In this document: positions 1,163 through 28,150 of the stretch, piece after piece
Numbering within the stretch: the first letter of the stretch is position 1
How the letters are laid out: each line of letters begins with the position of its first letter
DNA from: Verrucomicrobiia bacterium
Lineage (GTDB): Bacteria; Verrucomicrobiota; Verrucomicrobiia; Limisphaerales; DASXHY01
Assembly (NCBI GenBank): GCA_035550235.1
Contig: DASZPR010000621.1
Location: forward strand, 1 to 28,150
Length of the DNA: 28,150 nt
Direction of reading: 5' to 3'
The notes under the pieces: generated by a model
The model's database searches: none
Told to the model about the DNA's origin: nothing
Seen by the model: the letters and a program-made list of their open reading frames with translations, nothing else
Translations under genes and position numbers: made by a program

Positions 1163-2251
1163 ATGAAATTTGTCGGCCAATTCCCCACCTACCGCCCCCG
1201 ACGCTTGCGCGCCACCGCCCCCCTGCGCCGCCTCGTCCGCGAAACCCAATTGAGCGCCGCCCAACTCGTCCTCCCGCTCTTCGCCCGCAGCGGACGCAAA
1301 CTCCGCCGCCCCATCGCCGCCATGCCCGGCGTCTTTCAACTCTCCCCCGACGAACTCCTCCGCGACGCCACCGCCGCCCACGCCGCCGGCATCCCCGCCA
1401 TCCTGCTCTTCGGCATCCCCGACAAAAAAGACGCCCAAGCCACCGGTGCCTACGCCGCCAACGGTATCGTCCAACAAACCGTCCGCCTTCTCAAAAAAGA
1501 ATTGCCCGAACTGCTGGTCATCACCGACGTCTGCCTCTGCGAATACATGGAACACGGCCACTGCGGAATCATCGGCACGGAGCGCGGAGCATCCGCTCCG
1601 CAAGTTGGAAGAAAAGGTAGCCATGCCAAGCAGGCGCTCGGCACTCGGGCCAAAAGTGGCAAGACCGGCACGGTCACCGGCACCGTCCTGAACGACCCCA
1701 CCCTGAAACTTTTGGCCCGCACCGCCGCCAGCCACGCCGAAGCCGGCGCCGACATCATTGCCCCCAGCGACATGATGGACGGCCGCGTCGCCGCCATCCG
1801 CGCGCAACTCGATGCCGACGGCCACCACGACACCCCCATCATGAGCTACGCCGCGAAATTCGCCTCCGCCTACTACGGCCCCTTCCGCGAAGCCGCCGAA
1901 TCCACTCCCAAATTCGGCGACCGCCGCAGCTACCAGATGGACGCCGGCAACGCCGCCGAAGCCCTGCGCGAAGTCGCCCTCGACATCCAGGAAGGCGCCG
2001 ACATCGTCATGGTCAAACCCGCCCTCGCGTACCTGGACATCGTGCACCGGGTGAAAACGGAATTTGGCTACCCCACCGCCGCGTATGCCGTCAGCGCCGA
2101 ACACGCCATGATCAAAGCCGCCGCCGCGAACGGCTGGATCGACGAACGCGCCGTCACCCTGGAAACCCTCCTCTCCATGCGCCGCGCCGGCGCCGACATC
2201 ATCATCACCTACGCCGCCGTGGATGCCGCGAAGTGGCTCACCCAGGGATAA
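1163..2251 (+). CDS. hemB: Porphobilinogen synthase (delta-aminolevulinic acid dehydratase), Zn-type, with a ~30-aa insertion
   Basis: [20 protein letters not shown] (Cys triad), [34 protein letters not shown]. Start at ATG 1163; the ORF-track extension from 1049 translates repeat DNA. Confidence 0.97.
1579..1601 (+). repeat. Palindromic unit at the start of the in-frame hemB insertion
   Basis: ggagcgcggagcatccgctccgc: perfect 7-bp stem gcggagc(1584-1590)/gctccgc(1595-1601). Confidence 0.55.
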
Positions 2252-2253
2252 CG

Positions 2254-2281
2254 CGGAACTCGGAACTCGGAATGCGGAACC
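2254..2281 (+). repeat. Heptamer tandem repeat (cggaact x4) after the hemB stop
   Basis: cggaact cggaact cggaatg cggaacc. Confidence 0.75.
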
Positions 2282-2290
2282 GGCACGGAG

Positions 2291-2490
2291 GTAGGGCGCG
2301 TCACTCCGTGCGCGCCGGGCTGTGATGCAACCGTCGTGCGATCTCCCCCCTCTACGACTTGGCACGATCGGGCACGACCGTCTTTGAATTACAATGGGTT
2401 GCGTGGGCACGACTGCAATGCGACGAGTGAATTGTGAATGGGTTTGCTCCTGATGAATCCGAGCGGCGCGCACGGAGTGACGCGCCCTAC
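2291..2490. repeat. REPIN-like doublet of GTAG repeats
   Basis: Perfect 27-bp inverted repeat gtagggcgcgtcactccgtgcgcgccg (2291-2317) / 2464-2490 around a 146-bp spacer that holds several gcacga(c) motifs. Confidence 0.9.
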
Positions 2491-2590
2491 TTTTCAGATG
2501 CATACCCCGGTTTAATAGGCTGGCACCGTCTGGAACACGTTCTGGAACTGGAAGTTGCGTTTTGGGTTTTCCCCGGAAGATGGATCTAGC

Positions 2591-2618
2591 CACAGATTCG
2601 CGCAGATGAACACAGATT
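2591..2618 (+). repeat. Period-10 tandem repeat (cacagatt-type)
   Basis: cacagattcg cgcagatgaa cacagatt. Confidence 0.55.
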
Positions 2619-2688
2619 AAGCATCCACTACCAGCCGATCCGCCTCCGCCTGACTCCGGCGCAACAAGGGCACGAGGCCCATACTGAA

Positions 2689-2790
2689 AGGGCTGAAGGC
2701 CCGAAAGAGGAAAGCCCAGGGAAAGCGAGTCAGACGAGCGCAGCCCTGGGTAATCCGTCCAAAAATTCGCCAAGCGCTGAAAGTGCGACA
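2689..2790. repeat. TGAA(A)G-loop / cccaggg...ccctggg palindromic element
   Basis: gggctgaaggccc hairpin, cccaggg(2715-2721)/ccctggg(2744-2750) inverted pair, then cgctgaaagtgcg. Confidence 0.5.
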
Positions 2791-2974
2791 GAAATCGATT
2801 AGAGGAAATCCGGCGCACTGCCTGCGTCCTGCTCCCGCGAACCCAATGATGCTTCATGCCCGGTTCCATTTGCCCTTCTGCCCTCCTTCCTTGCGGCTGT
2901 TATAGCATTGATGTCAATGCGTCGCGAGAACGGTGTCGGGAAATTCATTGGTGGCTGCGTCACCAACGGAATAT

Positions 2975-3001
2975 GAGGCGGCGTGGCAGCGACCGCCCTA
3001 C
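2975..3001 (-). repeat. GTAG-tagged REP-like unit
   Basis: Minus strand gtagggcggtcgctgccacgccgcctc, back-to-back with the copy at 3011. Confidence 0.7.
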
Positions 3002-26030: not shown

Positions 26031-26070
26031 ATGTAAACGATTATCAAAACGGACATCAAATTCCGTCACA

Positions 26071-26553
26071 ATGAACTTTTTCCCCACCAGCAGACGCGAT
26101 CGATGGCTTCTGTTGCTGTTTCCGTTCAAGACGTATGTGTTTGTCGCACCAGCATTTTTTCTGATATGGGATATCGTTTCAAGCGGGCACCGTTTCCCGG
26201 GTGAAAGAAGGATGGCAATGGATTCTATCTCTGCGTGTTACATAATGTGCTTCCTGGTTTTTGCGACGACAACACTGCTTCTTTGTATCTTTCTGAAGTT
26301 TGATTTAGCGCTGACCACTGGCATACTCGCACTCCTGTCTTTTTTCTCTTCGGTTCTGATGACGGATCATTTCGGTCTGCTGGTGGTCATAACCTTGTTT
26401 TGGTTCATTGCATTTAATGTCTTTCGTCCGCGGCCCGTCATCACGGTTTTGGCTTCTCAAAACGAGACTGCTTTCACATGCCCCGTTTGCGCAACGAGGA
26501 TTCCCGGCCATGCCCAGAAATGCCCTCATTGCTCCTGGACTTATCTGGCGTGA
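26071..26553 (+). CDS. Membrane protein with C-terminal zinc ribbon
   Basis: About four TM segments, then CPVC-x9-CPHC. Confidence 0.65.
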   Translation: MNFFPTSRRDRWLLLLFPFKTYVFVAPAFFLIWDIVSSGHRFPGERRMAMDSISACYIMCFLVFATTTLLLCIFLKFDLALTTGILALLSFFSSVLMTDHFGLLVVITLFWFIAFNVFRPRPVITVLASQNETAFTCPVCATRIPGHAQKCPHCSWTYLA

Positions 26554-26562
26554 ACAATTCTA

Positions 26563-26642
26563 CGCACTCCAGGACCTCGCGGATAACTTAGGCCCCTTGG
26601 CTCGCGATAGCGTCTTGGAGTGCGCCAGCCCTCTGGTGCTTT
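26563..26642. repeat. gtcttggagtgcg-family palindromic doublet
   Basis: cgcactccaggac (26563-26575) inverted against gtcttggagtgcg (26612-26624), followed by hairpin gcgccag-ccct-ctggtgc. Confidence 0.55.
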
Positions 26643-26656
26643 TGCTTCACTTCAGC

Positions 26657-26684
26657 GTTCGAGGTTCGGCGTTCTGTGTTCGAT
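26657..26684 (+). repeat. Heptamer tandem repeat (gttcga-type x4)
   Basis: gttcgag gttcggc gttctgt gttcgat. Confidence 0.6.
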
Positions 26685-26740
26685 GTTAATTCCCAGACGT
26701 TGGCTGTTGGATATTGAACGTTTCTCATTCCGAGCCTTCG

Positions 26741-26769
26741 TTGACACCCTCTTTTTCCGCTGTTACTTT
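26741..26769 (+). promoter_or_regulatory. Putative sigma70 promoter of ileS
   Basis: Perfect TTGACA(26741-26746)-17 nt-TACTTT(26764-26769) with extended -10 TG; ATG 14 nt downstream. Confidence 0.7.
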
Positions 26770-26783
26770 GCGCATCCTTTGCG

Positions 26784-28150
26784 ATGGATTACAAAGACAC
26801 ATTAAATCTGCCCCGCACCGACTTCCCGATGAAGGCCGACCTCGTCACGCGGGAACCGGAGCGGCTCAAGAAATGGTACGCGGCGAAGCTCTACCAGAAA
26901 ATCCAGGACCAGCGCGCCGGCGAACCGAAATTTGTGCTGCACGATGGCCCGCCGTTCGCCAACGGCGACGTGCACATCGGCACCGCGCTCAACAAGATTC
27001 TCAAGGACATCATCGTCAAATACAAAACGCTCCGCGGGTTCAGCGCGCCGTATATCCCGGGCTGGGATTGCCACGGCTTGCCGATTGAATTCAAGGTCAC
27101 GCAGGACATGCGCAAAGCTGGCGACACCAGCGCCGACGCCACCACCATCCGCAAAGCCTGCGATGCCTACGCGCGCAAATACATCGACATCCAGCGCGAA
27201 CAATTCAAACGCCTCGGCGTGCTGGGCGATTGGGAAAATCCGTATCTCACGCTGAACAAGGAATACGAAGCCGACGAACTGCGCCTGTTCGCCGACATCG
27301 TCGAGCAGGGTTTCGTGTATCGCGGTAAGAAGCCCGTGTATTGGTGCATCCCGTGCCGCACCGCGCTCGCCGACGCCGAAGTGGAATACGCGGACCACGT
27401 CAGTCCCAGTATCTACGTCAAATTTCCCGTCGTCGGTCAGCCCAACACGTTCGTGGTTATCTGGACAACCACGCCGTGGACGCTGCCCGCAAATCTCGCG
27501 GTCGCTTACAATAAGAATTTCCAATACGTGCAAGCGGAGGTTGCCGGCGAAAAATATATTTTGTTCCGCGGCCTGTTGCCGACCGTCGCTGAAAAATGCG
27601 GCTGGAAGGACATCAAGGAAATGCCCCTCGACATCGTGGAATTGGCGAAGCTCCAATACCAGCATCCATTCTGCAATCGCACCGGGAAATTGTTCCCCGC
27701 TGAATTCGTCACGAGCGATACCGGCACGGGCTTTGTGCACATCGCACCCGGTCACGGCCTGGAAGACTATGGCCTTGGTTCGCAAAATGGCCTGCCGATT
27801 TATTCGCCGATCGATGACAACGGCAAGTTCACTCATACGAATGACCTGCCCGCTGAGCAGCAAATGCCCGCCGAATTACTCGGCAAATCCATTCTGGAAA
27901 AACACGGCAAGAGCGACGCGAACGAAGCAGTGCTGCACGAATTGCGCCTGCGCCACGCGCTGTTGCATCAGGAAAATTATCACCACAGTTACCCGCACTG
28001 CTGGCGCAGCAAAAACCCGGTCATCTTCCGCGCGATGGACCAGTGGTTTATTGAAATTGATCACACCGTAGGACAGGCGTCTCGCCTGTCTCCATCTTCA
28101 TCTGGAGAAAATTCAGAGACAGGCAAGATGCCTGTCCTACAAACGTTCCG
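26784..28150 (+). CDS. ileS: Isoleucine--tRNA ligase (type 1), 3'-truncated by window edge
   Basis: [34 protein letters not shown] (HIGH-type), [47 protein letters not shown]; frame open to the end of the window. Confidence 0.97.
28068..28140. repeat. In-frame GTAG REPIN inside ileS
   Basis: 25-bp IR gtaggacaggcgtctcgcctgtctc / gagacaggcaagatgcctgtcctac (23/25); reads [24 protein letters not shown] in the ileS frame. Confidence 0.9.

Follow-up and report, generated by a model that had tools for sequence, protein, structure and literature searches.

The window analysed here is a stretch of 28,150 nt from a Verrucomicrobiia bacterium (GenBank assembly GCA_035550235.1, contig DASZPR010000621.1) in which short palindromic repeats of the repetitive extragenic palindromic (REP) type, single or as head-to-head doublets that form hairpins (REPINs), lie in frame within genes for core enzymes. 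It is the entire contig C621, the longest of a metagenome-assembled genome (MAG) of 819 contigs and 4.02 Mb that is 72% complete, with 55.7% G+C. The four genes concerned are hemB, a gene for a pseudouridine synthase (Rlu) fused to a methyltransferase, hisC and ileS. Gene coordinates and identities were obtained from alignments to Pfam and to solved structures in the PDB, REP arms were located with nhmmer profiles of the repeat families, and the strength of each fold is given as a z score against shuffled sequences. An arm was counted as intragenic when it lay within a long open reading frame (ORF) with coding flanks on both sides according to a codon-usage model, which chose the correct strand for hemB, hisC, hisD, ileS and the Rlu fusion of the window. 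The genome of the window is called G000, its relatives G002-G008 and G013-G015, of which G008 consists of one contig, and contigs carry C-numbers; presence of the hemB and hisC inserts was scored in 11 relatives, and the Rlu fusion was searched in 12. Since soil and sediment metagenome runs of several studies contain near-identical DNA, the protein-atlas clusters closest to the Rlu-methyltransferase fusion are mostly verrucomicrobial, and an exact search with one window repeat matched many Verrucomicrobiota MAGs, the host is probably a free-living verrucomicrobial bacterium.

hemB (1163-2251, plus strand; 362 aa) encodes porphobilinogen synthase (delta-aminolevulinic acid dehydratase, ALAD) and matches Pfam PF00490 at E 1e-140, in two stretches. 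It is interrupted by an insert of ~26 codons (1574-1651, plus strand), with 3 more codons at ~1670-1678, that starts with a GGAGCG-tagged hairpin (stem 1584-1590/1595-1601; fold z -3.2). Alignments with ALADs in the PDB break off at aa 141-173, where every solved ALAD has a gap, and the distance from HGHCG to LNDP is 147 nt in the window versus 60 nt in G008, G003, and G006. The insert is a clean gap in 10 of the 11 relatives, and a shorter one lies at the same codon in G004. No copy of the hairpin exists at up to 4 mismatches and it passed for a unique sequence, a view overturned by a search for the tag plus stem: its type occurs in low copy number, with two further copies on C360 and another beside a transposase gene in G008, and these siblings agree over the first 15 nt. 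A true GTAG tag would place an in-frame TAG in this hemB frame. An AlphaFold2 model built on a 12-sequence alignment (mean predicted local distance difference test, pLDDT, 69.4; <35 in the insert) shows only that the insert is a loop, unstructured and of low confidence, that joins strand 118-123 to helix 179-194.

The second insert lies in the gene (15327-17153, minus strand; 608 aa) for a fusion of an RluA/C-type pseudouridine synthase (Pfam PF00849, PseudoU_synth_2) with an S-adenosylmethionine-dependent rRNA methyltransferase (PF10672). Within the pseudouridine synthase domain, positions 16509-16577 hold a decayed REPIN doublet of 23 codons, read as IATDVSRLT..ESRHLGSY, whose first 31 nt are identical at 29 positions to the intergenic repeat at 20806. 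Its arms score nhmmer E-values of 8e-5 and 0.32 and its fold z is -2.4. Opposite the doublet, E. coli RluC has a 15-aa gap. Among the relatives, it occurs at the same place in G008, G004, G002, G006, and G015 and is missing in G007, G013, and G014; in the G006 gene a second REPIN is nested within the first. The methyltransferase half of the protein is RlmI/RlmK-like. The fusion itself was present in 12 of 12 relatives, and atlas clusters place it in hundreds of Verrucomicrobiota proteins.

Two repeats fall within hisC (20870-22033, minus strand; 387 aa), which encodes histidinol-phosphate aminotransferase (Pfam PF00155; PDB 3hdo, E 8e-72), and alignment with 3hdo opens gaps of 11 and 19 residues at them. 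Insert 2 (21029-21085; fold z -3.9) is a REPIN doublet that carries a GTGC tag and the loops GTCTC and ATCTT. It encodes KVPPASRRKGERRQDAG, adds 17-19 residues, is common to G004, and is a gap in 10 of the 11 relatives as well as in 3hdo. Its first arm (21029-21055) is complementary at 25 of 27 positions to 17956-17982 (minus strand), a single GTGC-tagged REP arm with an ATCTT loop beside a stop codon. The DNA of G008 still has GGCGGC, a remnant of the doublet's right arm, so this genome lost the element by deletion. Insert 1 (21701-21730, minus strand; nhmmer E 1e-5) is a single REP arm read as VADEVTRRRS; it matches 27 of 30 positions in 17828-17857, the start of an intergenic REPIN of GTAGCCGCCGAGGTAACGAGGCGG type (17828-17901) whose 26-nt arms are 100% complementary (fold z -12.4). 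On its own, the hisC arm folds no better than its shuffled versions (z +1.0). The TAG that stops hisC belongs to the GTAG tag (20870-20873) of a further REPIN, at 20806-20873, which lies between two convergent genes (fold z -5.0; nhmmer E 1e-4). An AlphaFold2 model of HisC from a 12-sequence alignment was too poor for mapping the inserts (mean pLDDT 53.7). Heptamer microsatellites occur at REPIN sites of the relatives: (GGCCGGA)x3 in G008 and (GGCGGAA)x3 in G006, both in hisC loop 1, and, at Rlu and ileS sites, (TCATCCT)x4 in G013 and (AATCCGA)x4 as the spacer of a REPIN in two G015 genes. With a unit of 7 nt, three or more copies preserve the frame only as multiples of 21 nt.

The N-terminal 455 codons of ileS (26784-28150, plus strand) end at the contig edge and match isoleucyl-tRNA synthetases (IleRS) in the PDB over aa 1-425 (E 1e-121). 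Four residues beyond the end of structural homology lies a well-preserved REPIN (28068-28140; arms 92% complementary; fold z -7.4; nhmmer E 1e-6 for both arms). The site exceeds the empty one of G014 by exactly 72 nt, with both junctions, IDH and TF(R), in frame. The final TF(R) codons of the window correspond to the TFR that follows the insert in orthologues, the gene continues on C590, and a contig of 1501 nt from run X1 extends it past the window end. Positions 28066-28098 match 30 of 33 in 23475-23507, where a REPIN of GTAGGAYAGGC type, found by repeat searches and nhmmer, lies upstream of hisD (23476-23556). The longest hisD ORF would take in this sibling among its first 32 codons; since the Pfam Histidinol_dh domain begins only at aa 72, the repeat is probably 5' untranslated leader and outside the protein. 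In G008 the ileS match is interrupted by 66 nt near residue 255, which suggests an additional insert elsewhere in the gene.

The earlier note on this DNA had placed five in-frame inserts in these genes and matched four of them to dispersed repeats. Both statements were confirmed, the identities being reproduced, and siblings of the hemB hairpin (C360, G008) can now be added. It had also expected clean gaps against orthologues, which were found for hemB, hisC insert 2, Rlu, and ileS and were not found for hisC 21701-21730, where the loop is equally long in G008 and G006. Loops of equal length in orthologues were an outcome that the note had named as refuting, and this outcome concerns that single insert only.

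Inserts of this kind could be products of mis-assembly or could be removed before a working protein is made, and it is true that the MAG is fragmented and that the ileS insert ends 10 nt from the contig end. Even so, we hold this explanation to be very improbable. Logan contigs from runs of a study other than the probable source span hisC insert 1 (run X3) and insert 2 (run X4) with 0 differences, a contig of run X12 also spans insert 2 with 0 differences, and the probable source run itself yields a contig across the Rlu doublet. Across the Rlu insert and both hisC inserts, contigs from four runs of three studies are identical base for base. Since contigs of other studies agree with the window, and since relatives that were assembled independently carry inserts at the same codons, mis-assembly is excluded as their origin; the assembly artefact for which the earlier note had allowed is not the case. 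Of 1638 contig ends, only 16 have a REP at a distance of 60 nt or less, and on that count the idea that they cause the assembly breaks was rejected. As for removal, the elements of 30-75 nt have no intein or intron features, and hisC insert 2 is unchanged in a contig of 254 nt whose library is presumed to be RNA.

Membership of these elements in REP families follows from their number and arrangement. GTAG-anchored 22-mers recur up to 20 times in the genome; 376 tag-anchored arms in 9 families were recovered versus ~21 matches with reversed control seeds; and nhmmer located ~414 REP arms, with 63 head-to-head doublets. Copies are therefore far above chance, and foldable head-to-head doublets are frequent. 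The GTAG tag followed by a 5-8 bp stem is found in the ileS and Rlu inserts, the hisC single arm, and the intergenic copies, while GTGC in hisC insert 2 and GGAG in hemB are tag variants. By structure, the window repeats form three groups. The first, tagged GTAG, comprises the 16509 and 17828 types, which have a 5-bp stem and the 10-nt loop GA(C/G)GT(G/A)A(C/G)GA and whose only differences are complementary changes in the stem. In the second, the loops GTCTC and ATCTT are common to the ileS type and the GTGC-tagged hisC doublet, their stems being different, and the third is the GGAGCG-tagged type of hemB. Structurally, the four families of the earlier note thus reduce to three groups.

A genome-wide count, which the earlier note had recommended, placed 33 of the 414 arms inside 27 long ORFs, ~24 of them at E <0.01. 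Since ~8% of the arms are intragenic (381 of 414 lie outside coding interiors) while long ORFs make up ~83% of the assembly, REPs are strongly depleted from genes, yet not excluded from them. The hosts are genuine genes; those identified by Pfam include a glycogen debranching enzyme, trpC, a DEAD helicase, recG, ksgA, a glycolate-oxidase-like protein, ligA, uvrA, a Ser/Thr kinase, gatB, dus, prmA, a xanthine-dehydrogenase-type flavoprotein, fixG, dnaE, and recJ, among others; the trpC and gatB doublets fall in gaps versus solved structures. Genome-wide, about one REP-bearing gene is found per 150 kb, a lower bound, and the REP density of the window is five to six times that of the genome. Therefore, the rate of about one insert per 6 kb that had been put forward is correct for the window and is a local one. 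Every stop-free frame is used, with recurrent peptides such as ETGxMPVL, SRRREEA, and one beginning with VGQASx; a single arm can give the VGQASx-initial peptide or ETGxMPVL, depending on orientation and frame. Intergenic doublets have a mean of 2.4 of their six frames open.

Candidate mobilising enzymes were sought among REP-associated tyrosine transposases (RAYTs). With the RAYTs of G008 as tblastn queries, two RAYT-like genes were found in the genome of the window, on C466 and C3, and NCBIfam NF047646 is the only family that both match, over the full model length. Upstream of hemB, an intergenic segment of the window (1048-1103, plus strand; from sequence searches) consists of a GTGG-tagged repeat (1048-1075) and a GTAGGAGACGACGTGAGGAGTCTC arm (1080-1103), and each part has a counterpart at one of these genes. 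The C466 gene, with the HUH motif MPDHIH, has inverted GTAGGAGACGACGTGAGGAGTCTC arms on both sides that are identical to the window arm and belong to the same family as the Rlu doublet, and the C3 gene is bracketed by the GTGG-tagged repeat. The arrangement of a transposase gene between its own REPs (REPtron) is thus present for the GTAGGAGAC type on C466, and it is found for two other types in G008; a search for RAYT genes flanked by the same repeats had been recommended in the earlier note, and the RAYT-like C466 gene, bracketed by the Rlu-type family, answers to it. G008 has three RAYT-type genes, one of which (L207) carries GTAGCGGCGGTCTGTGACCGCC arms on both sides, a textbook REPtron, and another of which is followed directly by a GGAGCG-tagged doublet matching the hemB hairpin. 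A genome search with Pfam PF01797 (Y1_Tnp) returned six IS200-like loci and missed the two RAYT-like genes; the locus on C387 is the only one with a nearby REP (~190 nt upstream), and its G008 orthologue has one too. C557 (5078-5740) of G000 encodes the C-terminal half only of a large HUH-type transposase-like protein, the catalytic N-terminus being missing; the orthologue in G008 has 322 aa, with a GTGG-tagged, ATCTT-loop REP just upstream.

We therefore read the inserts, with a probability of about 0.85, as REP/REPIN elements of several co-resident families that survive in tolerant loops and are translated. Each element is a short hairpin introduced at its 5' side by GTAG or by a variant tag (GTGC, GTGG, GGAG), and many stand in head-to-head pairs; mobilisation of each family would presumably proceed in trans, as single-stranded DNA, through a RAYT-type HUH tyrosine transposase of its own. 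The majority of copies lie between genes; a genic copy would survive only if its net length were a multiple of three, its frame free of stops, and the loop tolerant, after which the hairpin DNA would be translated into 10-25 extra residues. A loop that bears a REPIN may then become neutral ground, open to decay, partial deletion, a new hit, or replacement by another family, with the consequence that the same loops would differ among sister species. The central proposal of the earlier note, that several REP families add peptide segments to housekeeping proteins in a host that looks free-living, is supported in this form, with four net inserts.

Several observations weigh against this reading, at least in its simplest form. 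The distribution of inserts does not follow the gene trees, in which G008 is the sister of the window genome and G004 lies outside: the hemB and hisC-2 inserts are common to G004 and not to the sister G008, and the ligA insert is common to G003 only. These patterns require repeated loss, repeated gain, or recombination, and a single gain per insert on the species tree was rejected for the same conflict. Furthermore, the gatB doublet stands in place of a linker of 19 residues found in every relative, and the hisC arm at 21701-21730 is a replacement with no net insertion, since hisC loop 1 measures 66 nt in the window genome, G008, and G006 alike (in the latter two with a heptamer repeated three times). 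Because both replace native residues, simple insertion is no explanation there. Measured from tag to tag, the intragenic doublets have lengths of 1 or 2 mod 3 and never 0; therefore, either the inserting unit is not simply GTAG..CTAC, or small indels followed. On the side of the enzymes, NF047646 scores the C466 protein at 41.6 and the C3 protein at 71.2 bits, under the curated cut-off of 80 bits, and both fall below the Pfam cut-off, with no Pfam hit, so they can be called RAYT-like and not certified RAYT members. No RAYT was linked to the ileS-type family in this 72%-complete MAG. Lastly, transposition by RAYTs, translation, and neutrality of the inserts are steps that we infer from sequence.

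The same protein loops are, on the alignments, re-used by REPs across species, since several families occupy one ileS codon and a REPIN is nested in another in the Rlu gene of G006. In ileS, REPINs start 0-3 nt past a single His codon and belong to the GACAGGC type in G000, the GA(C/G)GT type in G004 and G015, the GGGACGCGG type in G013, and a GGAG-tagged type in G005, the site being empty in G014. Such re-use could reflect targeted re-insertion, in which the RAYT prefers resident REPs or particular sequences and loops of essential proteins serve as landing pads that are rewritten serially. At least four families beginning within 3 nt of one another in different species, and the REPIN within a REPIN of G006, are what targeting might produce. 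Moreover, the ileS and Rlu REPINs of G015 carry that species' own heptamer spacer, the Rlu site is common to other genera, and REPs are known to cluster, with different REPs reported at one site of Xanthomonas recB (PMC3733652). However, the empty sites of ileS, hisC, hemB, and Rlu have no common target motif, a strong filter for loop tolerance acting on very many insertions could yield the same picture, and the comparison covers four genes that were selected for having inserts. We consider targeting possible, though doubtful. The corollary that the loops after IDH in IleRS, at the Rlu hairpin, and in hisC loop 1 are rewritten time after time by the REP family that happens to be active in each species, and would be the fastest-changing parts of these enzymes, is put forward equally tentatively. 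If loop re-use does reflect targeting, it bears on site choice by RAYTs.

Persistence of inserts raises a different question, whether the hairpins or peptides have been selected, be it because the mRNA structure slows translation or stabilises the transcript or because the protein loop is useful. The Rlu insert is present in six genomes and the trpC insert in three, and hemB of G000 and of G004 each has a perfect hairpin at one position, the two being unlike in sequence. Against such domestication stand the free decay of the arms (fold z -2.4 in Rlu versus -12.4 for an intergenic copy), the disappearance of inserts from sister species with no visible consequence, peptides that vary with frame and family, and host proteins that are unrelated to each other; we therefore think a selected function unlikely. 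Survival of REPs in tolerant loops remains the preferred account. In trpC of G003, only the two ends of the doublet remain; the ligA doublet of that genome has a similar spacer.

REPIN-RAYT systems were reportedly the subject of work by Bertels and Rainey in 2011. Our elements resemble such systems and REPtrons (Nunvar 2010, PMC2817692; Ton-Hoang / Messing 2012, PMC3479197) in the GTAG tag followed by a hairpin, the inverted doublets, the hundreds of copies, and the Y1 HUH gene between its own REPs (C466 here; L207 in G008). They differ in that classic systems are almost wholly extragenic, whereas ~8% of arms lie in genes here, and in that the transposases are too divergent for the curated RAYT model.

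The closest precedent is the survey of Di Nocera, De Gregorio and Rocco (2013; BMC Genomics 14:522, PMC3733652), which defined the GTAG and CGTC super-families and reported that tags are degenerate (GTGG in Opitutus terrae) and that a neighbouring ORF often ends at the tag's TAG. It lists intragenic REPs in several species, O. terrae foremost, giving 70 entries together with the peptides that they encode; among the hosts in O. terrae are both uvrA genes, DNA ligase, and RNA helicases, and among those elsewhere tRNA synthetases and pseudouridine synthases. In-frame REPs as such are therefore not novel, contrary to what the earlier note had implied: intragenic GTAG REPs were catalogued in 2013, mostly from the free-living O. 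terrae and in the same gene classes. The likeness extends to the phylum (probably the same, Verrucomicrobiota), the co-existence of REP families, GTGG-like tags, the use of TAG as a stop codon, the presence of different REPs at one site of a gene, and the occurrence of single arms and of dimers of 20-30 residues in known proteins of matching classes. The repeat sequences differ, as do the peptides, which are VGPALAAG and GTGVPPV in O. terrae and, for example, ETGKMPVL here. Unlike that survey, ours concerns an uncultured lineage and compares ~12 congeners, among which gain, decay, nesting, partial deletion, and switching of families at one codon could be followed; this comparison of turnover at the same sites may be the only part that goes beyond the literature.

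Rickettsia palindromic elements (RPEs) offer a second parallel (PMC10969869), being mobile palindromes that are translated in frame within housekeeping genes of unrelated kinds, whose function is not obviously lost. RPEs, however, measure ~100-150 bp, encode one conserved peptide per family, and belong to a reduced intracellular genome, whereas the elements here are of 30-80 nt and are read in several frames. According to the 2013 survey (PMC3733652), the RPE sequences of R. conorii have CGTC at their end, and no transposase is linked to the CGTC repeats; the elements of the window are tagged GTAG, and they match neither the length, the CGTC end, nor the single peptide per family. They are thus RPE-like in their working and are not RPEs. 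A 2024 review treats Rickettsia as the outstanding case and only conjectures similar events in other prokaryotes. On our reading, in-frame REPs would have supplied the core enzymes of free-living Verrucomicrobiota with loop variation routinely and over a long time, and such inserts would not be peculiar to Rickettsia. Lineage-specific "insertions" met by gene callers, orthology pipelines, and structure predictors would then really be repeat DNA, and loops that bear REPs would flag positions tolerant of 10-25 extra residues.

Further repeats lie between the genes of the window. An intergenic pair of GTAGGGCGCGTCACTCCGTGCGCGCC arms, 146 nt apart, occupies 2291-2490 (27 nt, 100% complementary; nhmmer E 6e-8 and 2e-8). 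A direct repeat of 62 nt (92%), made up of a GTAGGGCATYGCTGCCGCAATGCCC REP and a second small hairpin, occurs at 946-1007 and 3010-3071; a minus-strand gene starts next to one copy, and a plus-strand gene lies downstream of the other. At 12729-13370, inverted repeats of 59 nt (90%) enclose a stretch of 524 nt. Outside this genome, the exact core GTAGGACAGGC-N-TC-NN-GCCTGTC was found in MAGs labelled Verrucomicrobiota, Planctomycetota, Acidobacteriota, and Chloroflexota, and also in MAGs labelled Cyanobacteria, Nitrospirota, Atribacterota, and others, so that one REP type extends across many phyla.

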